Positions 3,114 through 62,591 of a stretch of DNA of 64,000 nucleotides are shown in pieces. The stretch spans positions 229,512-293,511 of the forward strand of contig CAVRGP010000013.1 of the NCBI GenBank assembly GCA_963720755.1, given 5' to 3'. A program made the position numbers and the translations under genes. Each line of letters begins with the position of its first letter. Within the stretch, counting starts at the first letter, position 1. A model generated the notes under the pieces. That model saw only the letters and a program-made list of their open reading frames with translations, was not told the origin of the DNA and did not search any database. The DNA is from an uncultured Chloroflexia bacterium (GTDB lineage: Bacteria; Chloroflexota; Limnocylindria; Limnocylindrales; CSP1-4).

Positions 3114-5174
3114 TCAGAGCCCCGAGACGACGCGTCCGAGGCCGCGCCGGAAGCCGATCCCGGCGACGCCCCGCCAGGGCACGGCGATGGTGCGCCGGAG
3201 ACGGGCGACCTCACGTTCTCGGCTCACGAGATACCGCCCGATCGCGGCGCTTTGCGCGCCCGACAAGTCGCCAGCGTGTTCCACCAGGAACGTCCTGGCC
3301 ATCGAGGCAGCGACGTCGGCGTCATTCATCAGGCCGAGGTGATCCTGGAGGGCGGTCACCCGGGCGATGAGCGGTCCCGCGTCCTCGCCGAGCGCCTCAC
3401 GAACGAACTCGAGCGTGTAGCGCAACCACTTGCCGGCGATCCGGAGTTCATGGAGGGTCTCGACGTCGGCCCAGCGAAGGACGGGCTCGTAGCCGCGAAC
3501 CTGTTCGTAGGCCGTCCAGATCCGGGATGCGGTCGTATCCCGGACCCGGTGGGGCTGGGTCGGCCCGACGGGCAGGACCGCGGACCCCTCGGTCCGGACG
3601 AAGTCCCGGTAGTCGTCGACCCATCGACGATAGCCATCCGAGTCCAGTTCCCGGACGAGCAGGACCCGGGCGTCATCGCGATGCTGGCGCCAGTCACGCA
3701 GGAGCGGATCGAGGGCACGTTGCTCGGAGGCCGGCAGATCTGACCGATAGTGGTCGGCGGCCTCGATGAGCACGTCGAGATCGCGGACGGCCCCAAGGCG
3801 CGAGGCGATCTCCTGCAGACCCGTGCGATACCGCCGGGTCCGCCGCTTTCGGAACGAGCTCCCGAAGACCCGCCAGGCCGCACGTTGTCGACGGGTCGCC
3901 ACCCGCATGGCGTGGAGTTCCTCGGGATCGTTGCCGGCGCGCGTCCCGGCCTCGCGAGCCAGCATCCGGGCGAGATGGAAGCGGAGCACCTTGCGGGCCG
4001 CTTCGGCGACATGATCGTCGGCCGTCACGCCCGGTGACTTGCCCACGACCAGGTGGGTCTCGGTCGGCGGAGCATCCTCGGCGGCTTCGCTGACGACGTC
4101 CGACGAGCTGGGCACCACCTCGGTCGAGGTCTCGCCGAGCAGCGCGTCGGCAACCGCAGCGAGGTCGTCGCCGGCCTCGATCTCGGCCTCGATCTCAGCC
4201 TCCTCGGCCTCCTCAGCCGCGGCTTCCTCGTCGTCGACCGCGTCAGCCGCGGCTTCCTCGTCGTCGACCGCGTCAGCCGCGGCCTGCTCGACCTCCTCGA
4301 CTGCATCCGCCCCGGCATGCTCGATCTCCTCGACCGCGTCAGCCGCAGCCCGCTCGACCTCCTCGATGGCTTCGGCGGCAGCCCGCTCGATCTCCTCGTC
4401 CGCGTCAGCCGCAGCCTGCCCGACCTCCTCGCCCGCTTCGGCATCGGACGCCGGGATATGGGCCGCCTCGGCTCGCTCTGCCGCTTCGGCCTCCTCGGTG
4501 GCCCGTGGAGACGCTTCGACCGGCGCGGCCGGCTCCTGGTCGCGCACGGATGCCATCGCCGCTTCGAGCTTGCTGTCGCTGACCGACTCGAGCGCGGCAT
4601 CGAGACTGAAGACATCGGCCAGGTGGGTGAGCCGGGCCTCATCGCCCTTGACCAGTTCTGCCTCCAACTCGGCGAATCGATCGATCACCCGTGAATGGGC
4701 CACGACGTCGACCTCGTCGAGGCTCAGTTCGACCCGGGTGTCGCCGTCCCGGACGACCCGCTTCCGCCGCAGCTGGCGGATCGTGACCAGCTCGATGAGC
4801 GGCGCATCGCCGGCGATCTCAAGGACCAGGGAGCGCGCATCCGAGGCCGGCCAGGCGTGCGGTGGCGTGGCCCGGTCGGCGGGACCCTCGATCTCCTCGC
4901 GGCGGAACGACCCACCGGCACCTTCTTCGTGCGCCGTGGACTTGACCGACACGACGGTGCCCCGCCCGGACTGGCGGATCCGAACGGCGAAGCCGGCCCG
5001 TGCCAGCGCACCGTCGGCGGTGTCGACGTAGCGATCCTCGGATTGCGAGGCTCGCGCGGTCGTGGCACCGACGAAGGGGCCGATCGACTTGGCCACGAGA
5101 TACCGCTCTGCCGCGGTCAGGTCGAGCACTCGATACTTGAGCTCGACCTCGACGGGACGATCCGGCGCCGTCAT
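3114..5174 (-). CDS. CYTH domain - acidic repeat linker - CHAD domain protein
   Basis: ORF 3114..5342(-). N-terminal CYTH (VEVELKYRV.., EIEGP). Central E/A/D-rich repeats. C-terminal CHAD (EELHAMRVATRRQRAAWRVF, LGLMNDADV). The ATG at 5174 overlaps the ppk1 stop (ATGA). Confidence 0.85.
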   Translation of the reverse strand: MTAPDRPVEVELKYRVLDLTAAERYLVAKSIGPFVGATTARASQSEDRYVDTADGALARAGFAVRIRQSGRGTVVSVKSTAHEEGAGGSFRREEIEGPADRATPPHAWPASDARSLVLEIAGDAPLIELVTIRQLRRKRVVRDGDTRVELSLDEVDVVAHSRVIDRFAELEAELVKGDEARLTHLADVFSLDAALESVSDSKLEAAMASVRDQEPAAPVEASPRATEEAEAAERAEAAHIPASDAEAGEEVGQAAADADEEIERAAAEAIEEVERAAADAVEEIEHAGADAVEEVEQAAADAVDDEEAAADAVDDEEAAAEEAEEAEIEAEIEAGDDLAAVADALLGETSTEVVPSSSDVVSEAAEDAPPTETHLVVGKSPGVTADDHVAEAARKVLRFHLARMLAREAGTRAGNDPEELHAMRVATRRQRAAWRVFGSSFRKRRTRRYRTGLQEIASRLGAVRDLDVLIEAADHYRSDLPASEQRALDPLLRDWRQHRDDARVLLVRELDSDGYRRWVDDYRDFVRTEGSAVLPVGPTQPHRVRDTTASRIWTAYEQVRGYEPVLRWADVETLHELRIAGKWLRYTLEFVREALGEDAGPLIARVTALQDHLGLMNDADVAASMARTFLVEHAGDLSGAQSAAIGRYLVSREREVARLRRTIAVPWRGVAGIGFRRGLGRVVSGL
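4212..4420. repeat. in-frame tandem repeats inside the CYTH-CHAD linker
   Basis: Exact 30-nt unit tcagccgcggcttcctcgtcgtcgaccgcg at 4212-4241 and 4242-4271 (encodes AADAVDDEEA x2). It is followed by degenerate units of about 39 nt (..AVEE[VI]E[QHR]AAADA..). Confidence 0.9.
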
Positions 5175-13871: not shown

Positions 13872-14735
13872 CTACGCCGGTCGGAGCGTGCCCGACCAGA
13901 CCTGCCAGGCCAGCAGTGACTTGGCGACCAGGCTGAGGACCATGTAGGTCTTCTCGCCATACAGGTAGTCGCTCCAGCGACCGATCTTCCGGTACTGGAG
14001 GATCATCGTGATGGCGAAGATGTTGAAGGCCACGAACAGGCTGGCGATGATCACGTAGACGAACGCCGGGATGCCGGCGTCAGCCGGGAGCCCCGTCTGG
14101 GCCGAGTACGCCCACAGGATCGAGAAGATCGCGATCCACGGGATGACTCCGGCGATGCAGCCGAAGAGGTAGTGCTTCCAGTCGATCCGCTCGCCCTTGG
14201 GCAGCCGCCCTTCATTGGCGGCCTCCATGCTCCAGCCGAACAGGATCATGGCGACGTTGCAGCCGGCGATGGCGACCAGCGCGGGGAAGTCGGTGATATA
14301 GCTCAGGTACGCGATGGCCACGATCATCACCGTCGACGAGAACGCGTATTCGATCCACCGCAGCGGGTTGATCCCACGCGCCAGGAACGCTTCGTACCGG
14401 CCACGCACGAGCCAGCCCGCCGATGCGTGGGCGATCGCGCTCATCAGGAAGAACGAGGCGATGACGTAGGCGAGCGGGATGGAGAAGAGCGTCACGCTCG
14501 TCTGCTCGACACCGGTGAACGAGCCGTTCTCGATGATCGGCTTGATGGTCGGCACGACCGGCGCGAAGACGACCGCGGTCGCGGAGATGGCGATCATGGC
14601 CAGGAACTGGAGGCCGTGGGCGAACGTCAGGCCGCGGTTCCAGCGGCGGAGCGAGCGGCTCGTGTCGGCCGGGATGGCCGTGCCGGCGCTGGGTCCGGTG
14701 TCGAGACGCCCGGTGTCGGCAGCAAGGGTGGTCAT
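13872..14735 (-). CDS. heliorhodopsin
   Basis: 287-aa 7-TM protein that aligns along its length with my recollection of heliorhodopsin 48C12. Matching blocks are RWIEYAFSSTVMIVAIA, MILFGW, FGCIAGVIPWI, IPAFVYVIIASLF and YMVLSLVAKSLLAWQVWSGTLRPA. The Schiff-base Lys (SLVAKS), counterion Glu (WIEY) and two conserved His are present. AGGAG lies upstream of the ATG. Confidence 0.9.
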   Translation of the reverse strand: MTTLAADTGRLDTGPSAGTAIPADTSRSLRRWNRGLTFAHGLQFLAMIAISATAVVFAPVVPTIKPIIENGSFTGVEQTSVTLFSIPLAYVIASFFLMSAIAHASAGWLVRGRYEAFLARGINPLRWIEYAFSSTVMIVAIAYLSYITDFPALVAIAGCNVAMILFGWSMEAANEGRLPKGERIDWKHYLFGCIAGVIPWIAIFSILWAYSAQTGLPADAGIPAFVYVIIASLFVAFNIFAITMILQYRKIGRWSDYLYGEKTYMVLSLVAKSLLAWQVWSGTLRPA

Positions 14736-14862
14736 GGGTTCGGGATCTCCTGACGTACGTTGGTGTCCAAGGTTCTATTCGGCCGGCGACGCGTTTCGGA
14801 TGCCCGCAGCTTGCACGAGGCGGCAGGGAACCGGCGCGATCGAGGTGTATCCTCTCGGTCCC

Positions 14863-52246: not shown

Positions 52247-53389
52247 GGCGCAAGCGGCAGCTGTTCGAGCCCGGCCGTCTCCGGCAGGCCGTGGACGAGA
52301 TTGAAGGCCTGGATCGCCTGGCCGGCGGCGCCCTTGACCAGGTTGTCCTCGACGCCGATCGCCAGGATCCGGCCGGTCCGCTCGTCGAGGCTGACGTGGA
52401 TCCGGACGTGGTTGCTGCCGGTCACGTCCTTGGTCGCCGGCGGGTCCGGCACGACCGTCACGAACGGCTCGTCGGCGTAGGCCGAGGCGTACATGGCGTC
52501 GAGTTCCGACTGGGTGATCTTGCGCGTCGGGCGGACGTGGCTGGCCGACAGGATGCCGCGGGTCATCGGGATGAGGTGGGGCAGGAAGTCGACCGCGATG
52601 ACGCCCGGGTTGGCACCGAGGTCGAGGCCCTGGCGCGCGGTGAGCTCGGCGAGTTCCTGCTCGATCTCGGCGACGTGCCGGTGGCCACCGATCCCGTAGG
52701 CCTTGACGCTCTCGTTGACCTCGCCGAAGAGCAGCCCGGTCCTGGCTTCCCGGCCCGCGCCGGAAACGCCGCTCTTGGCGTCGACGACGAGGTCACCGAT
52801 CAGCCCGGCCCGAGCGAGGGGAGCGAGCGCGAGCAGCGTGGCCGTCGGGTAGCAGCCCGGGCGCACCGACGATCGCGATCTCGGCATCGACCAGCGCACT
52901 GAGCTCCGCCCGATGCAGCTCGGGGAGACCGTAGACGGCCTGGTCGAGCAGGTCCGGCCGCGGGTGCTCGAAGCCGTACCAGCGCGGATAGTCGGCGGGG
53001 TCGCGCAGTCGGAAGTCGGGGCCCTGGTCGATGATCGCGGTTCCGTTGGCGATCAGCCCGGGCACCAACTCGGCGGCCGTTCCGTGGGGGAGCGCCATGA
53101 AGACCGCGTCGAGCGACTCCGGTAGTTCGGCGTGGATGTCGAGATCGAGGGTTGCCAGGTGCGGATGGACGTTGCCGACCGGATCGTGGTCGCGCTGGCG
53201 GCCGGTCAGGCCCACCAGATCCACGTTCGGATGTCGGGCCAGGAGCCGGATGAGCTCACCGCCGACGTAGCCGGTCGCACCGATGATCCCGACGCGGATC
53301 CGGCGTGGCCCGCCGGCAGGGTCGAGTCCGCGCAGGGTCCGTGAGGCAGGGGTCGCGGTCGTCGTCGTCACAGCTGGATGACTATACAT
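52243..53389 (-). pseudogene. argC: N-acetyl-gamma-glutamyl-phosphate reductase, reading frame interrupted once
   Basis: N-terminal part (VGIIGATGYVGGEL) is in ORF 52793..53389 up to ..AIVGAPG. The active-site continuation PGCYPTATLLAL..DAKSGVSGAG.. is in ORF 52243..52899. The junction gcgCCCGGGctgc at 52855-52860 looks like one extra base. Start is ATG 53389 or GTG 53371. Confidence 0.85.
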
Positions 53390-53408
53390 CTGAGTGCATA
53401 GTCATGCA
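53375..53408 (-). promoter_or_regulatory. tandem ARG-box-like operator at the argC 5' end
   Basis: Minus strand reads TGCAT-gact-ATGCA ctcaga TGTAT-agtc-ATCCA. These are two 5-4-5 dyads 20 nt apart in a locally AT-richer patch, matching the TGAAT-N4-ATTCA ArgR box architecture with actinobacterial-like TGCAT half-sites. argR is in the same cluster. Confidence 0.5.
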
Positions 53409-53460
53409 ATGGCGTCGGTCGGGTGCGCAGCTCAGGCAGGCCCACGAGGGCGCGAGGTCA

Positions 53461-53520
53461 ACGAAGGCACCCGCCCCATGAAGGCGCCCGCCCCACGAAG
53501 GCGCCCGCCCCACGAAGGCG
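53461..53520. repeat. 17-nt tandem repeat (3.5 copies) abutting the first repeat module
   Basis: acgaaggc(a/g)cccgcccc at 53461, 53478 and 53495, plus a partial copy at 53512-53520, directly followed by module block A. Confidence 0.9.
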
Positions 53521-53818
53521 TGATGCTTGATTTCAGGCACTTTGGACCGTGTGCTTTGCCGTATGCGCGTAGGCAGCATACGGGCGGTGCAGCCCCCCGA
53601 GACCACCCGATCCGCCTCCCCGGGCCGAGCCGCCGCCCCGCCGCCTCGCGCCACCGAGCCGCCGGGCGCCGCCGCGAGCCGAGCCGCCCCGCCCGGGCGT
53701 CTTCGGCCAGGTCGCCCGCCGACGCCCGCCTGGCCGCTCGGCCGCCCTAGCCCCGACGTATGCCGCCTACACGCATACTCGGGGAGAGTGTCGTCGCCCC
53801 CCGTCGAATCAAGCATCA
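53521..53818. mobile_element. 298-bp non-coding element bounded by inverted copies of the bipartite module (MITE/REPIN-like), copy 1
   Basis: Left end 53521-53582: TGATGCTTGATTT-N27-GTATGCGCGTAGGCAGCATAC. Right end 53756-53818 is the inverted copy (..GTATGCCGCCTACACGCATAC-N27-GAATCAAGCATCA). The interior is GC-rich low-complexity with no credible ORF. Confidence 0.6.
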
Positions 53819-53831
53819 GCCCTCGGGCTCG

Positions 53832-54406
53832 CTAGGCCGCCTCGGGCTCGCAGACGAATTGGAACGAACCGGAGGCAAGCTGGTTCGTCGTCAACGAGTG
53901 GTAGGTCCCGTGGCCTGTGATGGTCTGTGCGTCGAAATCGAGCTCGATGACCAGGTCTTTGCCTTGGGGCTCCGCTCGCCGGCCTGACCCAGTAAAGGGT
54001 GCTGTCGCCAGGTCCGCTCACTTCGGACTTCGAACGTGCCGTCCTGCTGGACGGACGCCGAGAAATGACTGTCTTCGACACCGTCGAGCGTCCCCCAGAC
54101 ATTCGCGCTGGTCGGCAAGGTTCCGTCGTCCTTGAAGAGGAAGCACTGTCCGGTCGTCATCGGCAATGTTCGCTTCCACACCTGCGAGCCGATCCGGATG
54201 GTGTTCGGCTCGACCGCGCCCGCCGGCTCCGGCTCCACGTCCCCGGTCTGGCCGCCACCGCCCGAACCACTCGAGCCCTGCGGGTCGTCCGACGATTCGC
54301 CATCGACGAAACCGTCCGGGGCGGTCTCGGTGGCCACTGATTCGGCGCCGCCACAGGCGGTCGTCGCGAGCGCGAGCGTCGCGATCAAGGTGAACAGGAT
54401 TCGCAA
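53832..54406 (-). pseudogene. secreted lipoprotein (hypothetical), C-terminal part in a different frame
   Basis: ORF 53891..54406(-) starts MRILFTLIATLALATTAC (lipobox). The best-coding C-terminal stretch (..KDLVIELDFDAQTITGHGTYHSLTTNQLASGSFQFVCEPEAA, stop 53832-53834) is in another frame. At least one frame change lies between about 53966 and 54020. Confidence 0.45.
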
Positions 54407-54498
54407 TCTGGGCCTCCCTCCCTAGGTCTTGGTTGCCCACCTACCGTATCGAACCGGTGCAAGTCGGGCGCCCAGGGCCGCGGCCGCGGTCGCGGCCC

Positions 54499-54990
54499 TC
54501 AGTCCAGGATGTCGGGCCGCATGTCGGGGCCGGTGGCGACGACCTCGCCTTCGGCCTCGAACGCCTTCTCGCCGGTCGACACGATCGCGAAGCGGTGGTG
54601 GACCACGGTCGCCCCGGCCGAGAGCATCGCGTTGACCGGGCAGTACTTCTTCGCGGACAGCTCGATGCAGCGACGGATCGACGCCTCGGACAGGTCGCGA
54701 CCGGTGACCTGGTGGGTGACGACGATGTCGGTGAAGACCTGGGGGTACTCGTCGCGCTGGCTGCCGGTGACGGTGACCGTGTACTCGTCGATGGTCTGGC
54801 GCTTCTTCTCGGCGATCGAGATGACGTCCATCGCGGTGCAGGCGCCGAGCGCCGACAGGATCGTCTCGACCGGGCTGCCGCCCTGGTCCGACGTGCGATC
54901 GTCGTAGTCGTAGGGATGGCCGGAACTGGGCTCGGCGTGGAGGTGCATCCCCCCGAGGTGGCGGATCTCGACGGACTTGTGGGTGGGCAT
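54499..54990 (-). CDS. OsmC/Ohr family peroxiredoxin-like protein
   Basis: 163 aa. Conserved Cys pair contexts (LGACTAMD, KKYCPV). Confidence 0.85.
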   Translation of the reverse strand: MPTHKSVEIRHLGGMHLHAEPSSGHPYDYDDRTSDQGGSPVETILSALGACTAMDVISIAEKKRQTIDEYTVTVTGSQRDEYPQVFTDIVVTHQVTGRDLSEASIRRCIELSAKKYCPVNAMLSAGATVVHHRFAIVSTGEKAFEAEGEVVATGPDMRPDILD

Positions 54991-54992
54991 CG

Positions 54993-57230
54993 TCAGACTC
55001 CGGCCAGCGCGATCGGGTTGGTTTCGTCGTCATCGGTGGTGGCGGCGTCGTCGTCGGCCGCCGCGTTGCCGTCCGAGCCGGCCCCGCGGGCGCTCTCCTC
55101 GGCCAGGAACTGCTCGCGATAGAGCCGAGCGTACAGCCCGTCCTGGGCGAGCAGCTCGGCGTGGGTGCCCCGTTCCGCGATCCGGCCACGCTCGTAGACC
55201 ATGATCCGGTCGGCGCGCAGGATGGTCGACAGCCGGTGGGCGATGGCGATCGTCGTCCGGCCCTCCATCAGGCTCTCGAACGCTTTCTGGATGAGCCGCT
55301 CCGACACGGTGTCGAGGGCCGAGGTCGCCTCGTCGAGGATGAGGATCCGGGGGTCCTTGAGCAGCACCCGGGCGATGGCCAGGCGTTGCTTCTCGCCGCC
55401 CGACAGCTTGTAGCCGCGCTCTCCGACGAACGTGTCGTAGCCCTCGGGGAGTTCCATGATCCGGTCGTGGATGGACGCGGCCGTGGCGGCGGCGATGAGC
55501 TCCTCGTCGGTCGCCTCGGGCCGGGCGTAGCGCAGGTTGTCGTGGACCGAGGCGTGGAACAGGTACGTCTCCTGGGTCACGGCACCGACGATGTCGCCGA
55601 GCGAGGCGAGCGTGATCTTGCGCACGTCGGTGTCGTCGATCTCGACCGCGCCCGAGTCGACGTCGTACAGCCGCGAGACGAGATAGGTCGTCGACGTCTT
55701 GCCGGCACCCGACGGCCCGACCAGGGCGACGAGCTCGCCGGGCTCGGCCACGAAGTCGATGTGGTCGAGCGCGAAGGGGACCTGGGTCGGGGCGTCGGGG
55801 GCACGGGGTCGGGGCGCCGCCGTCGGTGGTCGGGTCTGCATCCGTCGTCCCGAGATCGTGTCCGCAGTCGTGTCCGCCGCGCCGGTCATGGCGGCCACGT
55901 CGGGCTCGGCGGCCCATTCGGCGTCATCGAATGTGTCCTGGCCGAGGGCATCAGCCTCGCCGGCGGCCACCGCGTCGTGGGCGCGCTGCGAGGGGACCGG
56001 TTCGGTCGGATAGGCGAACGAGACGTCGCGGAAACGGACTCGGCCGCGGGTCGTCGCCGGACGCATCGTGACCGCGTCGGGCGCATCGACGATCTCCGGG
56101 TCCATCTCGAGGTATTCGAAGATCCGGTCGAACAGGGCGAGCGAGCCCTGCAGCTCGACCTGGATGTTGAGCAGCTGGCCGAGCGGGAAGAAGAGTCGAC
56201 TCTGGAGGGTCGTGAAGGCGACGATCGTGCCGGCGGTCGGGGCGTCGGGGCTGCCGTTCGCCGCGAGCGTGCCGGCCAGCCAGTACACGAACGCGGGCAT
56301 GATCGAGAAGATCGTGCCGATGATCATGAAGAACCAGCGCCCGACCATCGCCTGGCGGATCTGGAGCACGGCCAGTCGCTGGTTGAGGGCCCGGAACTTG
56401 ACGATGGCGTTGGCCTGCTGGCCGAACGTCTTCGACAGCAGGATCCCCGACACGCTGAGGGTCTCCTCGGTCGTCGCGCTCAGTTCGGCGAGGGATTGCT
56501 GGGTCTCGGTCGAGACCTCGCGGCGGACCTTGCCGACTCGGTAGGTGAGGTAGAGGAAGAACGGGGTCAGGGCGAGCGACAGGAGCGCGAGCCGCCAGTC
56601 GAGCAGGAACATCGCGATGATCGTGCTGGTCGCGATGGCCAGGTTGCTGGTCAGCGAGCTGGCCGTGTCGGTGACGACGGCCTGGACGCCGCCGACGTCA
56701 TTGGCCAGTCGGCTCTGGATCTCGCCGGTACGCGTTTCGGTGAAGAAGCGCAGCGGCATCGACTGCAGGTGGGCGTACAGCGCGCCGCGCAGGTCCTGCA
56801 TCACGCTCTGGCCGATGACGTTGTTGAGGTAGCTCTGGCCGACCCCGATCAAGCCCGTGATGATCGGCAGGATGATCATCAGGCCGACGTACAGGTTCAG
56901 GTTCGTGTAGTCGCCGCCGATGATGACCTGGTCGAGAAGGACGCCGAGCAGGAGCGGGTTGATCAGGCCGATGAGGCTGGTCGTCAGGATCGCGACGAGG
57001 ACGACGACGACCTGCAGTCGATACGGCTTGAAGAAGATCAGGATGCGGCGGAGGGTCCGGCCACGTCGCTCCTTGGGGACGGGGGTGAAGTCGCGGCTGA
57101 CCCCGCTGCCGAAGGGACCGCCTCGTCCGCCTCCGCCGCCGGTGCCGCCGGTGCCGCCGCCGATGCGCCCGCCGCGGCCACCGACCGCGCCACCGGTCGC
57201 TGTCCGCGTCTGTCCTCGTGGAAACCCCAT
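54993..57230 (-). CDS. ABC exporter, fused transmembrane and ATP-binding domains (MsbA/type I exporter-like)
   Basis: 745 aa. Gly-rich N-tail, 6-TM domain, Walker A GPSGAGKTS, signature LSGGEKQR, Walker B LILDEATSALD. A low-complexity insert of about 75 aa sits between the first NBD strand and Walker A. Confidence 0.9.
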   Translation of the reverse strand: MGFPRGQTRTATGGAVGGRGGRIGGGTGGTGGGGGRGGPFGSGVSRDFTPVPKERRGRTLRRILIFFKPYRLQVVVVLVAILTTSLIGLINPLLLGVLLDQVIIGGDYTNLNLYVGLMIILPIITGLIGVGQSYLNNVIGQSVMQDLRGALYAHLQSMPLRFFTETRTGEIQSRLANDVGGVQAVVTDTASSLTSNLAIATSTIIAMFLLDWRLALLSLALTPFFLYLTYRVGKVRREVSTETQQSLAELSATTEETLSVSGILLSKTFGQQANAIVKFRALNQRLAVLQIRQAMVGRWFFMIIGTIFSIMPAFVYWLAGTLAANGSPDAPTAGTIVAFTTLQSRLFFPLGQLLNIQVELQGSLALFDRIFEYLEMDPEIVDAPDAVTMRPATTRGRVRFRDVSFAYPTEPVPSQRAHDAVAAGEADALGQDTFDDAEWAAEPDVAAMTGAADTTADTISGRRMQTRPPTAAPRPRAPDAPTQVPFALDHIDFVAEPGELVALVGPSGAGKTSTTYLVSRLYDVDSGAVEIDDTDVRKITLASLGDIVGAVTQETYLFHASVHDNLRYARPEATDEELIAAATAASIHDRIMELPEGYDTFVGERGYKLSGGEKQRLAIARVLLKDPRILILDEATSALDTVSERLIQKAFESLMEGRTTIAIAHRLSTILRADRIMVYERGRIAERGTHAELLAQDGLYARLYREQFLAEESARGAGSDGNAAADDDAATTDDDETNPIALAGV

Positions 57231-57374
57231 CCGGCGACGCTACCACGGGTGCCGCGTGGTCGCAGGTGGCGTCGCGGTTTGATGCTTGATTTCAGGCGGT
57301 CGGTGGACATCCTCCTGCGGTATGCGCGTAGGCGGCATCAAGGCGGTGGGGCCGCGTTCGATCGCCCGTCGACC

Positions 57375-57475
57375 GCCAGCCAAGCGCCTGCCAATTGCCA
57401 GCCAAGCGCCTGCCTATTGCCAGCCAAGCGCCTGCCCATTGCCAGCCAAGCGCCTGCCAATTGCCAGCCAAGCGG
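57375..57475. repeat. 22-bp tandem repeat, 4 full copies plus a partial copy
   Basis: GCCAGCCAAGCGCCTGCC(A/T/C)ATT at 57375, 57397, 57419 and 57441, then partial GCCAGCCAAGCGG at 57463. A further GCCAGCCAAGCGA lies at 57496. The array is bracketed by a CGCCCGTCGA(C/T)CGCCAGCC direct repeat (57363 and 57484). Confidence 0.95.
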
Positions 57476-57560
57476 CAGGCGACCGCCCGTCGATCGCCAG
57501 CCAAGCGACAGCTAAGCGCTTGCCAAGCGCTGGTCGATCGGCCACGCGTACGGTGCCGAC

Positions 57561-57965
57561 GTGAACTGGGACAGTCAGCGCCCGCGCGATCCACAGCAGC
57601 AGCACGGGTTCGATCTCATCGGCTGGTCAATCAAGCGCCGACGCCTGGCGAGGCACTGGACGCAACGTCAACTCGAGGTGCAGTGCGGCATCGATCAGAC
57701 CGTCATCAGTCGGCTCGAGAACGGCCGGCAGTACGGCCTCAAGTGGCGCCGATTCGCCGACCTTGTCGATGCACTCGGGGGTCTCGATATGCCGCCCGGG
57801 AGCTTCCCGCCCGCCGGGCTCCCGAAGCCATCTGCGAACCGTGAGTCGGATGCTCCGGCCCGAACCGACGATATCGAGGACTCGGCCGGATCCGATCGGC
57901 TCGCCAACCGGGACTCGTTCGATGATCCCGACTTGTTCGACGATCCGGATCTGTTCGGCGGCTAG
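57561..57965 (+). CDS. XRE-family helix-turn-helix protein with acidic repeat tail
   Basis: 134 aa (GTG start). HTH core WTQRQLEVQCGIDQTVISRLENG. C-terminus ..DSFDDPDLFDDPDLFGG. It lies entirely inside repeat element copy 2, downstream of the 22-bp array. Confidence 0.7.
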   Translation: MNWDSQRPRDPQQQHGFDLIGWSIKRRRLARHWTQRQLEVQCGIDQTVISRLENGRQYGLKWRRFADLVDALGGLDMPPGSFPPAGLPKPSANRESDAPARTDDIEDSAGSDRLANRDSFDDPDLFDDPDLFGG

Positions 57966-58139
57966 GGACTCTCTGCGCCCCGACGCGAAGGCTCATCGCC
58001 CCGGGCCTGATGCCGCCTACGCGCATACCGACCAGTGGGTCCCAAAAGGTGCCTGGAATCAAGCATCAAACGCGCCGCGGGCAAGGCAGCCGCCTCGGCC
58101 CGGCGGCGGGTCGGCCCTCGGCGCCGCGGCCGCGCCGAC

Positions 58140-59171
58140 CTACCAGGCGGTGGCGGTCGCGGCCTCGGTGATGCCCTGGGCTTCGAGCCAGCGCTCGGCG
58201 TCGATGGCGGCCTTGCAGCCGTCGGCTGCGGCGGTGACGGCCTGGCGGTATCGATGGTCGTGGACGTCGCCGGCGATGAACACGCCGTCGACCTTGGAGC
58301 CGGTCTCGTCGTGGACGACGAGGTAGCCCTTCTCGTCGACATCGAGCCAATCGCGGAAGGCCTCGGTGTTCGGCCGATAGCCGATGGCGATGAACACGCC
58401 GCCGACATCGAGTCGGGTCTGGTCGCCGGTCCGGGTATCGGACACGAGTAGCCCCTCGACCTTGTTCTCGCCGACCACCTCGTCGACCGCGGTGTTCGGG
58501 TGGATCTCGATCTTGTCGTGGGCCGTCGCCCGGTCGACCATGATCTTGGAGGCACGGAACGAGTCGCGACGGTGGAGCAGGTGGACCTTCGTGGCGAAGC
58601 GGGTGAGGTAGGTGGCCTCCTCGAAGGCGGTGTCGCCGCCGCCGATGACCGCGATCTCCTGGTCCTTGAAGAAGAAGCCGTCGCAGGTCGCGCAGGCGGA
58701 CACGCCGCGGCCGCGCAACCGGGTCTCGCTGTCGAGGCCGAGCCACAGGGCCGACGCGCCGGTCGCCACGATCACGGCCTGGGCGCGGTACTCGGTGCCG
58801 TGCGCCCAGATCCGGAACGGACGCTCGGAGAAGTCGACCCGATCGATGTCCGAATCGACCATGCGGGCACCGAATCGCTCGGCCTGGGCTCGCATCGCGG
58901 CCATCAGGTCGGGGCCCTGGATGCCGTCGACGAAGCCCGGGTAGTTCTCGACGTCGCTGGTCAGCATCAGCTGGCCGCCCGGAGCGGAACCGGCCAGGAC
59001 GACGGGCTCGAGGTTGGCCCGGGCGGCATAGATCGCCGCGGTCAGGCCGGCCGGACCGGACCCGACGATGACGACCTTGGCATCGACGTGGCCCCCGCCG
59101 CTCAGTGGGGTGGAGGGGCCGGACGATGCCGGTTCGTCGAAGGTGGTGGCGAAACCGCCGAACTCTGTCAT
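58140..59171 (-). CDS. trxB: thioredoxin-disulfide reductase
   Basis: VVIVGSGPAGLTAAIYAARA (FAD), redox-active CATCDG, GGGDTAFEEA (NADPH). Confidence 0.9.
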   Translation of the reverse strand: MTEFGGFATTFDEPASSGPSTPLSGGGHVDAKVVIVGSGPAGLTAAIYAARANLEPVVLAGSAPGGQLMLTSDVENYPGFVDGIQGPDLMAAMRAQAERFGARMVDSDIDRVDFSERPFRIWAHGTEYRAQAVIVATGASALWLGLDSETRLRGRGVSACATCDGFFFKDQEIAVIGGGDTAFEEATYLTRFATKVHLLHRRDSFRASKIMVDRATAHDKIEIHPNTAVDEVVGENKVEGLLVSDTRTGDQTRLDVGGVFIAIGYRPNTEAFRDWLDVDEKGYLVVHDETGSKVDGVFIAGDVHDHRYRQAVTAAADGCKAAIDAERWLEAQGITEAATATAW

Positions 59172-59180
59172 GGCCTCATC

Positions 59181-59212
59181 GTATCACTCTTGCGATACCC
59201 CCTGGGGGTATC
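59181..59212. other. perfect 19-nt palindrome plus an extra GTATC arm between LLM and trxB genes
   Basis: GATACCCCC-T-GGGGGTATC at 59194-59212 (9-bp arms). An additional GTATC at 59181-59185 is inverted relative to GATAC at 59194. Located 10-40 nt upstream of the trxB start and 18 nt downstream of the LLM gene stop. Confidence 0.6.
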
Positions 59213-59229
59213 TGTGGAGGGTCCGGATA

Positions 59230-60144
59230 TCAGGGTAGGGTCCGGAGTTGGGGGATCACGTCGCGACCGAACCGCTCGAGCGCGGCGAGATCGGCGAAGC
59301 CCTTGTACGACACGATGACGTGGTCGGCTCCCGCGTCGGACAGGTCGCCGAAGCGGTCGATGATCTCGTCGGGCGATTCGGCGCTGGTCGCGGCGGCACC
59401 GCCCTCCGCGGGCCCGGCGAAGCGGACCTGCTGCAGGGTCGAGTGCTCGATCTCGGCCGGGTCGCGACCGATCGCGGCGCAATGCTCGGCCAGGATCGCG
59501 TACTTGCGGGCGATGCCCTCGGGGGTGCCGAAGACGTTGGTCGCGTCGCCGTACTGGGCCACGAGGCGCAGGGTCTTCTTCTCGCCACCGCCACCGATCA
59601 TGATCGGGACCCTGGGGCGTGACAGCGACTGCGGGGAGTTGAGGAGCCTGGTCGCCTCGTAGTGGCGGCCGTGGAACTCGCCCTCCGTGCCGTGGTCGCC
59701 GTCCATCATCTGGTGGGCGATCTGGAGCGTCTCCTCGAGCAGTTCGAAGCGCTCGCCGAGCGGCGGGAAGGGGAAGCCGAGGCTGTTCGACTCGTACTCG
59801 TTCCAGGCGGCGCCGATCCCGAGCCAGGCCCGACCGCCCGACAGGACGTCGAGGGTGGTGGCGGCCTTGACCCACAGGCCGGGGTGTCGGTAGTGGACAC
59901 CACCGACCATCAGGCCGAGGCGGGCTCGCTTGGTGTGCGCGGCCAGGAACCCGAGCGTCGTCCAGCCCTCGAGCATCGGTTCCTCGACGGCACCGACGCC
60001 ACGGATCTGGAAGAAGTGATCCATCACCCAGATCGAGTCGAAGCCGACGTCGTCGGCCGTGCGCGCGATCTCGGCAAGGGTCGGGGCGATCGCGGCCGTG
60101 CCACCGGGCCACGTGAACGAGCTGATCTGCAGGCCGATCTTCAT
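59230..60144 (-). CDS. LLM-class (luciferase-like) F420-dependent oxidoreductase
   Basis: 304 aa. MKIGLQISSFTWPGG N-terminus and TIM-barrel LLM profile (FDSIWVMDHFF, GIGAAWNEYE). Confidence 0.85.
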   Translation of the reverse strand: MKIGLQISSFTWPGGTAAIAPTLAEIARTADDVGFDSIWVMDHFFQIRGVGAVEEPMLEGWTTLGFLAAHTKRARLGLMVGGVHYRHPGLWVKAATTLDVLSGGRAWLGIGAAWNEYESNSLGFPFPPLGERFELLEETLQIAHQMMDGDHGTEGEFHGRHYEATRLLNSPQSLSRPRVPIMIGGGGEKKTLRLVAQYGDATNVFGTPEGIARKYAILAEHCAAIGRDPAEIEHSTLQQVRFAGPAEGGAAATSAESPDEIIDRFGDLSDAGADHVIVSYKGFADLAALERFGRDVIPQLRTLP

Positions 60145-60180
60145 TTCGTTGCGTAGCGTACCAAAATAGGCCCGAGGGGC

Positions 60181-60243
60181 CCCGCGGCGGTTTGATGCTC
60201 GATTTCAGGCGTTCAGTGGGACCCCGTTCCCGATATGCGTGTA
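60181..60243 (+). repeat. solo copy of the bipartite module
   Basis: TTTGATGCTCGATTT-N27-ATATGCGTGTAGGCGGCATAT. Located 37 nt upstream of the LLM gene start and reading towards the membrane-protein gene. Confidence 0.7.
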
Positions 60244-60402
60244 GGCGGCATATTTCGCGTCCGAGGGTCTTCGCGGCGGGGCCGGGGGCGGATCCGGAGC
60301 CCGCTTGACGCGGCCACCTCGCGACCCCGACAGTCCGCAGGTGCACGAACCGCCGACCGAACCAGAAACGCCCGGAAACGATGTCCCGCCTCGGGACGTC
60401 GA

Positions 60403-61584
60403 TTGTGGGTCCAGCCCGCCGAGCCGGAACCCGACACGACGCCAGCGTCCGGGGGAGCCATCGACCGCGAGGATGGCGCTGGCCACGACGATGGCGCTGG
60501 CCACGATGATGGCGCTGACGCCGAGGATGAGGCCGGCGCCGAGGTCGAAGACGCCGAGGACGAATACGGGGACGACGGCGACGACGACCGGGACGAGGAG
60601 GACGCGCAGGCCGAGCCCGGCGGCCCGGGCGTGCCGGCTCGATGGGCGGCGTTCGTGTTCTTCGCGCTCGGTGGCGTCGTCCTGTGGCTCGCGTACCTTG
60701 ACATCGCGAACTCTGTCGTCCTGTCGCCGGAGTTGGTGGTTCGATTCCTGGTGCTGGCCGCCCCGGCGGTCTGCGCGGTCCTCATCCCCGGGGCGATCCT
60801 GCTCCGACACCCGGATGCCTGGTACCGCGGGCGGACCCTCCTGTTCGGTGCCCTGGTCTTTGCCTCGACGTCGTTCTTCCACACGATCGAGCGGTCGCTC
60901 CAGGAGACGTTCGGAAACCTGACCCCGCCGCCACAAAGCGGGCTCGATTGGTTCGTCCCGTCGGCCATCGTCTATTCGGGGTTCGTCACGATCCTCGGGC
61001 TGTTCGGGCTGCTCTACCTCGGCGTCGGCCTGTCCAGGGCCAGGAACTACGAGGACGTCGGCCGATCGAGGGTGGCAGCGGTGGCGCTGTTGGTCGTCGC
61101 GGCCATCTCGGTCCTTGGCCGGCTCTTCGTGCTCACGAAGGTCGACTTCGGCGACCCGCGCCTGACCTGGGATCTGCAGCTCTACGTCGTCTCGATCGTG
61201 GTCCTGGGGATCCTGACCACGCTGACCTGGACCTACCTCGCGATCACGCTGACCCGGTCCGCGCTCGCCGGTGAGGAGCCCGTCGCGGGCTGGGCGCTGG
61301 GGGCTATCGGGGCCTGGCTCGTGATGCTGTCATTCCTCGTCGTCGCCGTGGCCACGTTCGTGACGATCACGAGCCAGGATCTTGCCAACATGGTCGACGA
61401 CATTCGAGTCGGTCTGAATGCGTTCGGGCCGATCGCGCTCGTCATCGGGTTCCTGCTCGGGCTGCCGTCATTCGAGCGGGTCACCTGGGACGACGAGGCG
61501 GACTCCGATGCCACTGTCGACGAGTTCGACGCCGAGGTCGACGACGAGGTCGAGGCGGCGGCCATGGGCTCGTCGCTGGTCTGA
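60403..61584 (+). CDS. polytopic membrane protein with acidic repeat N-tail and acidic C-tail (hypothetical)
   Basis: ORF 60235..61584(+). The listed ATG lies inside the repeat module. Third-position GC rises only after about 60400, so TTG 60403 (or GTG 60631 just before the first TM) is more likely. About 8 TM helices. The tail has D/E/G repeats. Confidence 0.55.
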   Translation: MWVQPAEPEPDTTPASGGAIDREDGAGHDDGAGHDDGADAEDEAGAEVEDAEDEYGDDGDDDRDEEDAQAEPGGPGVPARWAAFVFFALGGVVLWLAYLDIANSVVLSPELVVRFLVLAAPAVCAVLIPGAILLRHPDAWYRGRTLLFGALVFASTSFFHTIERSLQETFGNLTPPPQSGLDWFVPSAIVYSGFVTILGLFGLLYLGVGLSRARNYEDVGRSRVAAVALLVVAAISVLGRLFVLTKVDFGDPRLTWDLQLYVVSIVVLGILTTLTWTYLAITLTRSALAGEEPVAGWALGAIGAWLVMLSFLVVAVATFVTITSQDLANMVDDIRVGLNAFGPIALVIGFLLGLPSFERVTWDDEADSDATVDEFDAEVDDEVEAAAMGSSLV

Positions 61585-61599
61585 GGGCTGTTGGTCGGC

Positions 61600-61867
61600 T
61601 TGATGCTGATTCGAGGCGGTCCCGGGACGCCTCCCGTTCGTATGCGCGTAGGCGGCATATCGGGAGGCGCATCGGCGAGTGACCCGCGGCGAGGTCCCAC
61701 CGTGTGAAGGGCGAGTCTGCGCGGACGGCGCCCGACGCCCCTGGGGCGGCTCGGCTTGGCCGCCGGCCCGATCCACCCGGTACGCCGCCAGCTCCTCGGT
61801 GCCCTTGATGCCGCCTACGCGCATACCGCCAGCGGAGGTCGTCGGACCGCCCCAAATCAAGCATCAA
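61600..61867. mobile_element. 268-bp non-coding element bounded by inverted bipartite modules, copy 3
   Basis: Left end 61600-61661: TTGATGCTGATTC-N27-GTATGCGCGTAGGCGGCATAT (1-nt deletion in block A). Right end 61803-61867 is the inverted copy (CCTTGATGCCGCCTACGCGCATAC-N27-AAATCAAGCATCAA). Confidence 0.6.
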
Positions 61868-61948
61868 CGTGGTGCCTGGTGGCACCGCTAGTGACAGACA
61901 GCTGGCACGGGCCAGGCACAGTCTCGGAACGTACCGAGGGAGCGACCG

Positions 61949-62137
61949 ATGGAAGAACCGACCGATCTGGATGAACCGATCCTGTACTGCGCGACGTGCG
62001 GCGCGCCGCTCACCGGGGACCCGGACGAGGATCCGACGGGCGACGCGGGCATGCCGATCTGCGGCGAATGCGAGCGCAATCGCGACTTCTTCGCGATGGA
62101 CGCGGCGGACGGCGACCTGGACGGCGAGATCCGGTGA
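61949..62137 (+). CDS. small acidic zinc-ribbon protein (hypothetical)
   Basis: 62 aa. CATCG..(17)..CGEC four-Cys pattern. GAGGGAG RBS 7 nt upstream of the ATG. Confidence 0.5.
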   Translation: MEEPTDLDEPILYCATCGAPLTGDPDEDPTGDAGMPICGECERNRDFFAMDAADGDLDGEIR

Positions 62138-62173
62138 GGGCGTTCGGGCTAGGATGGGGACGGTGATGACTCG

Positions 62174-62591
62174 ATGACCGCACGACCGGATCAACGAGGG
62201 CCGGGCCTGCTGGTTCGGGCGCTGTGGTTCCTGTTCATCGGCTGGTGGCTGAGCGGGATCGCGATCGTGGTCGCGTACTTCTGCTGCGTGGTGATCATCC
62301 TGCTGCCGCTCGGGTTCATGATCTTCAACCGATTGCCGGCGATCCTGACGCTGCGACCGCGCAGCGACGGCGAGGTCGAGGTCCGCGACGGCGTCGCGTA
62401 CAGTCGGGGCGGCACCAACCGATCAGCTCCCGCTCTGGATCCGGGCCATCTGGTTCATCTTCGTCGGCTGGTGGCTCGGCTGGTTCTACCTGCTGATCGC
62501 CTGGCTGTTGTGCGTGATCATCATCGGGCTGCCGATCGGCCTGTGGATGATGAACCGGGTCGGTGCCGTCATGACCCTGCTCCGCTACTGA
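62174..62591 (+). pseudogene. yccF: YccF/DUF307 inner-membrane protein, reading frame interrupted between the two repeats
   Basis: The first DUF307 repeat (ALWFLFIGWWLSGIAIVVAY..LPLGF) is in the frame of ORF 62174. The second repeat (QLPLWIRAIWFIFVGWWLGWFYLLIAW..GLPIGLWMMNRVGAVMTLLRY, stop 62589-62591) is in another frame. The junction is near 62418-62424 (aaccgatcag). Confidence 0.7.

Follow-up and report, generated by a model that had tools for sequence, protein, structure and literature searches.

We analyzed a 64-kb stretch of DNA (the window) from an uncultured soil Chloroflexota bacterium, in which seven copies (c1 to c7) of a module made of two conserved blocks, A and B, lie around a small gene encoding a helix-turn-helix regulator of the XRE family. 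The copies and the features next to them, by position in the window, are as follows.

53441-53520: 17-bp tandem repeat, 3.5 copies, abutting block A of c1.
53520-53579, plus strand: c1 (block A 53520-53532, 27-nt spacer, block B 53562-53579), left half of pair 1; 131 nt upstream of the argC start (53389, minus strand).
53760-53819, minus strand: c2, right half of pair 1; adjoins the 3' end of a minus-strand lipoprotein gene.
57230, minus strand: start of an ABC exporter gene.
57279-57338, plus strand: c3, left half of pair 2; between the divergently oriented ABC exporter and XRE regulator genes.
57374-57530: array of 11/22-bp tandem repeats (GCCAGCCAAGCGCCTGCCAATT; 4.5 copies) in the part of pair 2 that separates c3 from the regulator gene.
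57561-57965, plus strand: XRE-family helix-turn-helix gene (134 amino acids), between c3 and c4; candidate module binder.
58010-58069, minus strand: c4, right half of pair 2; between the 3' ends of the regulator and thioredoxin-reductase-like genes.
60192-60251, plus strand: c5, unpaired in the window; 48 nt upstream of the start of a luciferase-like monooxygenase gene (60144, minus strand).
60310-61806, plus strand: window-specific segment of ~1.5 kb with a membrane-protein gene and c6.
61600-61658, plus strand: c6 (59 nt), left half of pair 3; 16 nt past the membrane-protein stop codon.
61808-61867, minus strand: c7, right half of pair 3; 82 nt upstream of a conserved zinc-ribbon open reading frame.
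61949-62137: the zinc-ribbon open reading frame, preceding a UvrD-type helicase gene (NERD/UvrD in related loci).

The modules are a genuine repeat family, as the first-pass annotation had proposed. Its count of seven copies was confirmed by seven exact matches to block B (TATGCGYGTAGGCRGCAT) in the 64 kb, against 0.06 expected by chance; block A (TGATGCTTGATT), searched with up to two mismatches, gave six matches against 0.12 expected, and the seventh copy, c6, has a 1-nt deletion inside this block. The spacer, said to be an invariant 27 nt, had that length between A and B in all seven. Also borne out were the intergenic placement of every copy and the three inverted pairs, which span 300, 791, and 268 bp; the start of c5 had been put at 60182, 10 nt away from its true position of 60192. 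An ATG within block B of c5 begins a long open reading frame, the first ~100 codons of which look noncoding. A profile search with nhmmer found no eighth copy in the window, and all seven copies lie no more than 4.3 kb from the regulator gene, with none in the remaining 53 kb. Pairwise identity among the copies was 97% for block A and 95% for block B but only 44% for the spacer (random expectation, 29%), and this disparity indicates that the blocks have been held by selection rather than recently copied.

We then determined how the motif is distributed outside the window and found some 60 related sites, spread over 16 loci that represent roughly a dozen related genomes. Since the spacing and the pairing persist across these genomes, the copies cannot be put down to local segmental duplication only; the proposed left and right end subtypes, distinguished by GGGAC or GACGAC in the spacer, failed to recur in them. 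The core of block B is a 17-bp dyad, ATGC-N9-GCAT, which was present in every genome examined, occurred 7 times in the window against 0.5 expected, and was enriched in nearly every locus. Block A is restricted to a subclade, where it usually lies 41 nt upstream of block B (27 of 39 modules; range, 39 to 43 nt). The center of block B is uniform within a genome and different between genomes: the version in the window, GCGTAGGCG, contains GTAG, while most others, such as CCATGGACG, ATGTGGACT, and CTGTCAGGA, do not. A search for the exact pattern of A plus B matched a single GTDB genome, a related metagenome-assembled genome (MAG), five times in two regions, its sites being on at least two contigs. 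The same genes kept their pairs in genomes whose regulator proteins are 43 to 72% identical. Other copies are lineage specific (c6, the L006 site at 12567, the L008 site at 11609, and those of L002, L004, and L015), and what the pairs bracket varies, from nothing to the regulator gene, a hydrolase gene (L004), an Imm5-like gene (L010), or a DUF4395 gene (L007).

The orientation of the sites follows a rule. In the 16 loci, 28 of the 45 neighboring pairs were convergent (plus followed by minus), at distances of 46 to 1,717 bp, and only 4 had both members in the same orientation. The order in the window is + - + - + + -, an interleaved arrangement of pairs and not two opposed groups. Additional copies of block A outside the modules were spaced 11, 21, 22, 22, and 40 nt apart, and two further sets, 17 nt apart, are off the helical phase.

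The motif is also tied to the regulator gene. Pfam models PF13560 and PF01381 identify the bracketed gene as encoding an XRE helix-turn-helix protein, and a gene of this kind was the one attended by sites in each of the 12 loci to which regulator homologues had led. B-type sites adjoined it every time; they stood on both sides of it in 10 loci, while in L013 and L014, the two in which another gene comes directly after it with no gap, both sites were upstream. The orthologues are 43 to 80% identical overall, and both their recognition helix and the dyad arms are essentially invariant: the helix, GIDQTVISRLENG, was constant in all orthologues examined save for conservative V, A, and I variants. 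The orientation of the regulator gene relative to its neighbors was identical in 11 of 11 loci in which both neighbors were visible. Not all pairs are near the gene: those of L002, L004, and L015 lie a long way from any copy of it.

Block B had been credited with a small hairpin, most spacers with GC-rich inverted repeats of their own, and the whole module with a possible nature as a structured RNA or single-stranded DNA motif. On that reading, a hairpin in block B, another in the spacer, and pairing between A and B would together produce one folded element. The hairpin was retained in part. Its four ATGC/GCAT arm pairs were invariant across 54 sites, and a stem of 4 to 6 bp can form, but the outer and inner flanking pairs were unpaired in 35% and 43% of the sites, respectively. 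Double changes at the dyad positions that flank its core were more frequent than in shuffled alignments (21 cells against a mean of 14.7, with 3 of 500 shuffles reaching 21); RNAalifold, however, returned only the invariant mini-hairpin at -4.5 kcal/mol, with a covariation term of -0.18 kcal/mol, that is, essentially no covariation. The spacer repeats did not exceed dinucleotide shuffles in stability (mean z, -0.13 for 28 spacers), and there was no excess of hairpins. The complementarity noted between TTGATGC of block A and GCATCAA at the 3' end of block B in some copies is real, and it arises because block A shares the half-site of the block B dyad arms. Rfam gave no hits at the gathering score over the whole window and none at an E value of up to 1 in the interval 53000 to 62500. 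With modules placed in both orientations relative to the flanking genes, and with primary sequence rather than pairing being what is conserved, a structured nucleic acid is scarcely credible.

The arrangement in inverted pairs had led to the suggestion of a MITE-, REPIN-, or IS200/605-end-like family. Read in this way, the modules would be nonautonomous or semimobile repeats, ends of elements that depend on a transposase or RAYT gene at some other location and that sometimes enclose passenger genes, as in mobile insertion cassettes. The three inverted pairs of the window do have the form of terminal inverted repeats, the block B centers are genome specific like those of REP families, and the lineage-specific copies, the variable bracket contents, and the ~1.5-kb insertion or deletion that includes c6 all agree with mobility. 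Against it, the first-pass annotation had already reported neither a target-site duplication nor a transposase or integrase in the window, and both absences held: no direct repeat flanked the five pairs that we read in the window and L002, and the Pfam scan of the GC3-supported open reading frames of the window detected neither enzyme. Nor was a transposase, RAYT, or integrase found when about 200 kb from related loci was added to the window, and there was no full-length transposase element with the same ends in the window or in 17 loci. The ends of IS200/IS605 elements were rejected as a candidate, as the members of a pair are one module inverted and not two distinct ends, and no TnpA or TnpB was found. 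The interiors of the pairs are unrelated to each other, copy number, as gauged by the exact A-plus-B pattern, is low and the copies are clustered, and the flanked gene encodes a DNA-binding domain with no catalytic domain. Recent copying predicts the reverse of the diverged spacers and interiors and intact blocks that we observed, and the retention of pairs around the same genes in distant genomes, the palindrome of only 4 invariant bp, and the loss of GTAG in other genomes also speak against mobile repeats, an origin we consider unlikely. In agreement with the earlier statement that the module could not be assigned to a described family, plasmid and phage collections gave no match to the motif, nor did viral contigs, and we found no paper printing its core sequence.

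The ~1.5-kb segment bears on another proposal, that the modules are targets of a site-specific recombinase which inverts the DNA between them or docks cassettes next to block B. The segment is absent from the related MAG, where the c5 orthologue is directly paired with the c7 orthologue (L003). One of its junctions with the chromosome coincides exactly with the inner border of the c7 block B (CTTGA|TGC), and CTTGA is present on both sides; in L005, synteny is lost immediately beyond the module that lies downstream of the regulator. Inverted repeats that bracket variable content would fit such a system too. Nevertheless, no locus had a recombinase gene inside it or nearby, the orientation of the regulator gene is constant as described above, nhmmer found no second module at the left junction of the segment, and the 5-bp repeat is explained equally well by a microhomology-mediated deletion in the other lineage. 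Recombination at the modules is thus highly improbable.

Beyond the observed motif anatomy, spacing, orientation rule, selective constraint, and cross-genome link to the regulator gene, the reading we favor, at about even odds (a probability of roughly 0.5), is that the modules are operator-like sites for the bracketed XRE regulator, acting in pairs and probably through DNA looping. They are most likely neither a jumping element nor an RNA. According to the proposed mechanism, a dimer of the protein would read the 17-bp pseudo-dyad of block B, its two recognition helices contacting the invariant arms and the asymmetric center (T8 invariant; G10 and C12 commonly conserved) being read indirectly or by an N-terminal arm. 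The center varies between genomes with the recognition helix unchanged, which counts against this mechanism unless a second contact or short-patch gene conversion is assumed. In the subclade that includes the window, a further subunit may sit on block A, which repeats the TGATGC half-site 41 nt away; as this distance is about four helical turns, A would be on the same face of the helix as B. Protein-protein contacts could then bridge two convergent modules, with A outward and B inward, and loop out the DNA between them. The complex would control, as either a repressor or an activator, the regulator's own gene, the neighboring operons (ABC exporter plus OsmC, thioredoxin-reductase-like plus luciferase-like, argC, and zinc ribbon plus helicase), and a few sites elsewhere in the genome.

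Several observations argue for operator-like sites: the form of the dyad, the gene link, the invariance of both helix and arms, the constraint on the blocks, their phasing, and their roughly fixed position, as well as the failure to find RNA covariation, an Rfam hit, an excess of spacer hairpins, or a transposase. As to position, the proximal B site begins 85 to 101 nt ahead of the regulator start codon in five genomes. The GTG start of the regulator is preceded, at 6 nt, by a -10-like TACGGT, and since this apparent promoter falls between c3 and the start codon, c3 is probably outside the regulator mRNA, a point that also counts against a structured RNA. The sites do not overlap -10 or -35 elements and lie about 73 to 105 nt upstream of the apparent promoters; for the regulator gene, they were 38 to 212 nt upstream of -10-like hexamers, the promoters being predicted from sequence only. 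Other facts count against operators. The association with the regulator gene could be positional only, a symmetric dimer has no need of consistent convergence, and there are the sites away from promoters, the pairs distant from the regulator gene, and the 17-nt off-phase sets of block A. Several sites (c4, c6, c2, pair 2 of L002, and the left site of L004) are where a promoter is not expected.

Some of these same facts suit a polar barrier or boundary, in which the same protein-DNA complex would block replication forks in the manner of Ter sites, transcription read-through, or loop extrusion, each pair forming a small trap or insulated domain. The IRI and IRII terminators of Bacillus subtilis are bipartite A/B sites beside rtp, a small autoregulated gene for a DNA-binding protein, and the convergence rule and the A-outward, B-inward geometry of the modules recall them. 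Many sites occupy 3' ends or gaps separating convergent genes, positions that hardly suit a promoter role, and the tandem repeats (of which the 57374-57530 array is far shorter in the related MAG), the insertion or deletion, and the synteny break are located right at modules, as would be expected near stalled forks. On the other hand, GC skew did not change sign across the cluster and no dif-like sequence was seen, a weak test in 64 kb only; genes lying left of the regulator are directed away from it and not toward it; and the pairs interleave, with sites spread over two or more contigs of the related MAG. The protein, moreover, has an XRE helix-turn-helix and not the Tus or RTP fold. We give a barrier role a small probability, and we hold it quite unlikely that modules bound by the XRE protein constitute a polar terminator or insulator of a third bacterial type, hitherto unknown and comparable in function to Tus-Ter and RTP-Ter. 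If they did, forks, RNA polymerase, or loop-extruding complexes would be trapped between the members of a pair, which would explain the local tandem repeats, the insertion or deletion, and the synteny break.

If the modules are indeed operator-like sites, they provide a binding motif and a first set of targets for a conserved regulator of poorly known uncultured soil Chloroflexota, a group for which no regulatory element appears to have been described earlier. The candidate targets would be the ABC exporter with OsmC, the thioredoxin-reductase-like and luciferase-like oxidoreductases, the arginine operon, and the NERD/UvrD helicase operon. For an operator, it is unusual to have two different blocks four helical turns apart, a convergent-pair rule holding across spacings of 46 bp to 1.7 kb, and a center that is uniform in each genome and different among genomes. 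A simple repressor model leaves these features unexplained, and they make the locus a compact bacterial system for testing orientation-dependent DNA bridging or barrier function.

Among known systems, the locus can be compared with the operators of Cro and CI of phages lambda and 434, which likewise combine a small XRE/Cro-type helix-turn-helix protein with a 17-bp pseudo-dyad of invariant arms and asymmetric center. Lambda operators are seventeen base pairs long, as is the block B dyad, and pseudo-palindromes of 14 to 17 bp are typical of Cro/CI-type operators. Mirror-oriented clusters of sites on both sides of the regulator gene resemble OL and OR, which flank cI and are joined by a repressor loop, and auxiliary sites at whole helical turns suggest cooperative binding and looping of the lambda/434 kind. 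Unlike those operators, the modules belong to a chromosomal locus that is conserved across genera and is not a prophage, the candidate sites stand about 73 to 105 nt from promoters and not on them, a second and different block A lies at a fixed 41 nt, and the convergence rule also applies at loci with no regulator gene and between convergent genes. The RTP-Ter system of B. subtilis shares bipartite A/B sites, an inverted pair beside the gene of a small DNA-binding protein, more copies nearby in both orientations, and a clear dependence on orientation. It differs in its winged-helix protein, in A and B sites that overlap (the modules here are ~60 bp with a 27-nt spacer), and in its two opposed groups of sites in place of interleaved pairs; a GC-skew switch and a dif-like site are lacking at our locus. 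REP/BIME/REPIN-RAYT families are similar in being short, extragenic, species-specific repeats, often in inverted pairs, that flank a single-copy gene for a would-be cognate protein and are kept at the same loci in related genomes. They number tens to hundreds, however, against about ten copies counted here, and each has an imperfect palindrome of 20 to 40 nt that folds into a stable hairpin, in place of which the module has only 4 invariant bp and no stable hairpin. The module also differs in a GTAG head that is not conserved, in pair spacings of 46 to 1,717 bp, and in a flanked gene for a noncatalytic helix-turn-helix protein instead of an HUH (Y1) transposase. MITEs and mobile insertion cassettes, finally, also have inverted terminal modules of ~60 bp around short noncoding DNA or one passenger gene; our pairs depart from them in their unrelated interiors, in the absence of target-site duplications and of any partner insertion sequence found, in the conservation of only two blocks of each "terminal repeat," and in positions that are old and common to several genomes.

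Block B of the module, TATGCGYGTAGGCRGCAT, was found seven times in the window, against 0.06 occurrences expected from shuffled sequences, and block A six times at no more than two mismatches, against 0.12 expected; the seventh block A, that of c6, carries an internal 1-nt deletion. The seven modules, each consisting of block A, a spacer and block B, are the following.

c1, 53520-53579, + orientation, module
c2, 53760-53819, - orientation, module
c3, 57279-57338, + orientation, module
c4, 58010-58069, - orientation, module
c5, 60192-60251, + orientation, module
c6, 61600-61658, + orientation, module
c7, 61808-61867, - orientation, module

The first-pass annotation had placed the start of c5 at 60182, which is off by 10, while its claim of an invariant 27-nt spacer held for all seven copies. 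The pairs c1/c2, c3/c4 and c6/c7 span 300, 791 and 268 bp, respectively. A search of the 64 kb with a profile made from the copies (nhmmer) gave no further module; a hidden eighth copy at 60305-60370, at the left junction of a 1.5-kb insertion, was considered on a weak likeness seen by eye and rejected, having no nhmmer support. The window has a G+C content of 69% and an ordinary chromosomal gene content, including genes for polyphosphate metabolism, galactose use, an arginine operon, OsmC, an ABC exporter, a thioredoxin-reductase-like protein, a luciferase-like monooxygenase and a UvrD-type helicase. A heliorhodopsin gene (13872-14774, - strand; PF18761, E=1.6e-77) lies amid ordinary metabolic genes. 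Among the window copies, identity was 97% in block A, 95% in block B and 44% in the spacer (29% being expected at random), and the pair interiors showed no relation to one another. Since spacer similarity would persist after a recent transposition or whole-module gene conversion, these values indicate that purifying selection acts on two blocks at a constant separation.

Genome and metagenome DNA was then scanned with A+B patterns only. Of 185,579 species representatives, only one genome contained the exact A-gap-B pattern: a MAG that bears the name 'uncultured Chloroflexia bacterium' and has a contig syntenic with the window at ~89-94% identity. The metagenome scan added one contig. Viral contigs gave no match to the module pattern, plasmid and phage collections gave no blastn match to a module, and a literature search with the block A string returned unrelated primer sequences only and no paper printing it in a relevant context. 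At the related MAG and metagenome loci inverted pairing was seen again, block A facing out and block B facing in, with a gap of 64 to about 1070 nt between the inner B-block ends. This recurrence in other genomes contradicts the possibility that the copies are a local segmental duplication only. This is a genuine, conserved feature, of which no earlier description was found.

Modules c3 and c4 bracket a gene (57561-57965, + strand) for a 134-aa XRE-family helix-turn-helix protein (PF13560, PF01381), referred to here as the regulator, whose homologues were used to collect ten further loci from other assemblies. The encoded proteins were 43-72% identical to the window protein in nine aligned loci, a divergence at which saturation of silent and intergenic positions is expected. 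The ten fetched loci all shared the neighbourhood of ABC exporter, regulator, thioredoxin-reductase-like and luciferase-like genes, with arginine-biosynthesis genes and OsmC further upstream where the locus was long enough. Module-related sites adjoined the regulator gene in all 12 loci that carry it and flanked it in ten; in L013 and L014, where a methyltransferase gene adjoins the regulator downstream with no gap, both sites lie upstream, in the interval separating the ABC exporter gene from the divergent regulator gene. Another pair recurred between argC and the next gene, at a shifting exact position: it brackets DUF4395 in L007 and an Imm5-like gene in L010, and consists in L011 of two B sites only 13 nt apart. 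The recognition helix of the regulator, GIDQTVISRLENG, was essentially invariant in all orthologues, as were the B arms, and the nearest solved relatives by sequence were 434-type repressor domains.

Window positions 57830-58122 did not align with 7192-7478 of L001, a locus of the related MAG that is otherwise 92% identical; the stretch takes in the 3' third of the regulator gene (coding for an acidic tail with repeats), the spacer downstream of it and the c4 spacer, and blocks A and B of c4 are intact despite their diverged surroundings. In L005, synteny with the window stops directly after the module downstream of the regulator, and the thioredoxin-reductase-like and luciferase-like genes are replaced by a run of ~8 kb in which no gene has a Pfam hit, with an SLFN-like helicase gene after it; this region (L005 8450-16390) may be an island inserted beside the module.

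Block B was the universal part of the module, in the form of a 17-bp dyad, ATGC-N9-GCAT, which occurred seven times in the window against 0.5 expected and was overrepresented at almost all loci. Across 54 sites, essentially no variation was seen in the four arm pairs; the next outward pair was unpaired in 35% of the sites and the next inward pair in 43%. An asymmetric centre, with an invariant T8 and commonly conserved G10 and C12, gives each site an orientation. This centre was near-uniform within a genome and differed between genomes, as listed here.

Centre of block B by genome
Window: GCGTAGGCG
L005: CCATGGACG
L006 and L008: CTGTAGACG
L011: ATGTGGACT
L012: CACTCGAGA

Block A, TGATGCTTGATT, was near-invariant where present and limited to a subclade, being absent in L011-L014 and mostly absent in L010. 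It carries the TGATGC half-site of the B arms again, and GATGC of block A and ATGC of block B were 41 nt apart, or about four helical turns, in 27 of 39 modules (range, 39-43). Copies of A outside modules were spaced 11, 21, 22, 22 and 40 nt; two extra sets, spaced 17 nt, were off the helical phase. With direction set by the B centre, 61 sites gave 28 convergent (+ -) neighbours, 46-1717 bp apart, 13 divergent (- +) neighbours, 2.2-4.1 kb apart, and only 4 in the same orientation, and every locus began with a + site. These counts point to the convergent pair as the functional unit. During the tracing of membrane-protein homologues, the 21-mer TGATGCTTATCAGCGGCATCA was met by chance as a perfect inverted pair at 8402-8483 of L015 (and 8557-8638 of L016), with 48 nt separating the two 17-bp cores; in L015, another high-GC genome, it sits between tatA and a histone-deacetylase-like gene, with no XRE gene within 12 kb.

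The first-pass annotation had proposed a structured RNA or ssDNA motif, or a MITE-, REPIN- or IS200/605-end-like family. Against a structured RNA, Rfam gave no match at the gathering score or at E<=1, and the RNAalifold consensus of 19 copies held only the invariant mini-hairpin of block B, with a covariation term of -0.18 kcal/mol; ARAGORN found nothing. The inverted repeats pointed out in the spacers were no more stable than dinucleotide shuffles (mean z, -0.13). In most loci a TAnnnT -10-like hexamer lies 6-7 nt before the regulator start codon, so the regulator mRNA appears from its sequence to be leaderless, leaving c3 outside it, which also speaks against an RNA function. Lineage-specific copies and variable bracket contents do argue for some turnover of the kind expected of a REP- or MITE-like element. 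Active mobility is opposed, and a typical element of any of the three families made improbable, by the lack of target-site duplications at the module pairs and of a transposase or integrase in the window (both as originally reported), the lack of a transposase or RAYT gene in the window and in every related locus, the few and clustered copies (exact A+B scan, related MAG), their conserved positions around the same genes in distant genomes and a weak palindrome. The GTAG of the window block B was not conserved in other genomes.

Two further candidates were rejected: a sigma-70 or other classical promoter element, as hexamers and spacing misfit in both directions and the distance from module to apparent -10 varies between genomes; and a small peptide from the block B ATG (MRVGGI start), as two convergent copies would be antisense to each other where they overlap and some interiors measure only 12-65 nt. 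Other motifs lie near the modules. The sequence CCGTGGTAGCGTC (extended -10-like TGGTAGCGT), 6-8 nt before the ABC exporter start (57230-57250, - strand), was conserved in seven genomes (window, L006, L008, L009, L010, L011 and L012), which suggests a leaderless or near-leaderless exporter mRNA, and several genomes have block B at ~70-76 nt upstream of this sequence. The gap separating c3 from the regulator gene contains 4.5 copies of a tandemly repeated 22-bp unit, GCCAGCCAAGCGCCTGCCAATT (57374-57530), in an array that the 92%-identical MAG has in a much shorter form (L001 6800-6900). Each unit holds CCAAGCG, resembling the reverse complement of block A (TCAAGCATCA), and YAAGCG-like motifs recur upstream of the regulator -10 in other genomes. 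Many modules are directly bordered, on one side or the other, by short tandem repeats of 13-33 bp (window 53441-53520; L006 12530-12565; L009 9810-9850 and 10250-10420; L010 10540-10620), and two of the three top-scoring arrays of the window touch a module. Upstream of c1, an AT-rich palindrome, ATGACTATACAT-CTGA-GTGCATAGTCAT (~53377-53406), overlaps the argC start and has the look of an ArgR operator (ARG box), and L011 has a similar sequence at the corresponding position (3540-3570). Another palindromic motif, GTGACAGACAGCTGGCAC...GTGTCAC in its L006 and L008 form (window 61888-61925; L006 12683-12720; L008 4696-4730), is probably a separate operator; it precedes a conserved zinc-ribbon ORF (61949-62137; 59-62 aa, CxxC...CxxC), which itself precedes the NERD/UvrD helicase gene.

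A window segment of ~1.5 kb (60310-61806), containing a membrane-protein gene and c6, is missing in the related MAG (L003 1660-1737). One junction falls exactly on the inner edge of the c7 block B, and CTTGA is present at both, as might be expected if the modules were recombination sites. A 5-bp microhomology is weak evidence, however, and neither a recombinase nor an inversion was observed. Elsewhere, the inserted gene has homologues (P0121, P0126) in a different conserved context (DsbH-like thioredoxin, NUDIX/lactamase_B, UDG) with no modules, and mobility of the gene itself was rejected.

We consider the modules best read as a new regulator-operator set of unusual paired bipartite architecture, a reading to which we give about an even chance (roughly 0.5). 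They are probably double-stranded binding sites of the bracketed XRE protein, judging from the form of the pseudo-dyad, the invariant recognition helix and arms, the presence of sites beside the gene in every genome examined and the 434-type relatives. The closest parallel is with lambda and 434, in whose operators a 17-bp pseudo-dyad with invariant arms, as in block B, is the classic target for Cro/CI-type dimers. A dimer of the protein would occupy the 17-bp B pseudo-dyad, block A would provide a further, cooperative contact on that helix face, and two convergent modules would be bridged, looping out the intervening DNA, with binding, loop formation and the regulatory direction each a matter of inference. 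Several features fit a simple regulon poorly: some sites occupy 3' ends or the gap between convergent genes, the orientation is strict, some pairs (as in L015) are far from any regulator copy, and the B centre varies between genomes while the recognition helix does not.

The geometry of the modules resembles that of the IRI/IRII terminators next to rtp in Bacillus subtilis, which are likewise bipartite sites in an inverted pair beside the gene for a small DNA-binding protein. By analogy of geometry the modules could form a polar barrier or boundary, and they are accompanied by tandem repeats, the 1.5-kb indel and the L005 synteny break. We regard this as unlikely, given that the GC skew shows no switch in the window, that a search for a dif-like site found none and that the pairs interleave rather than form two opposed groups; a literature search on fork traps gave nothing relevant.
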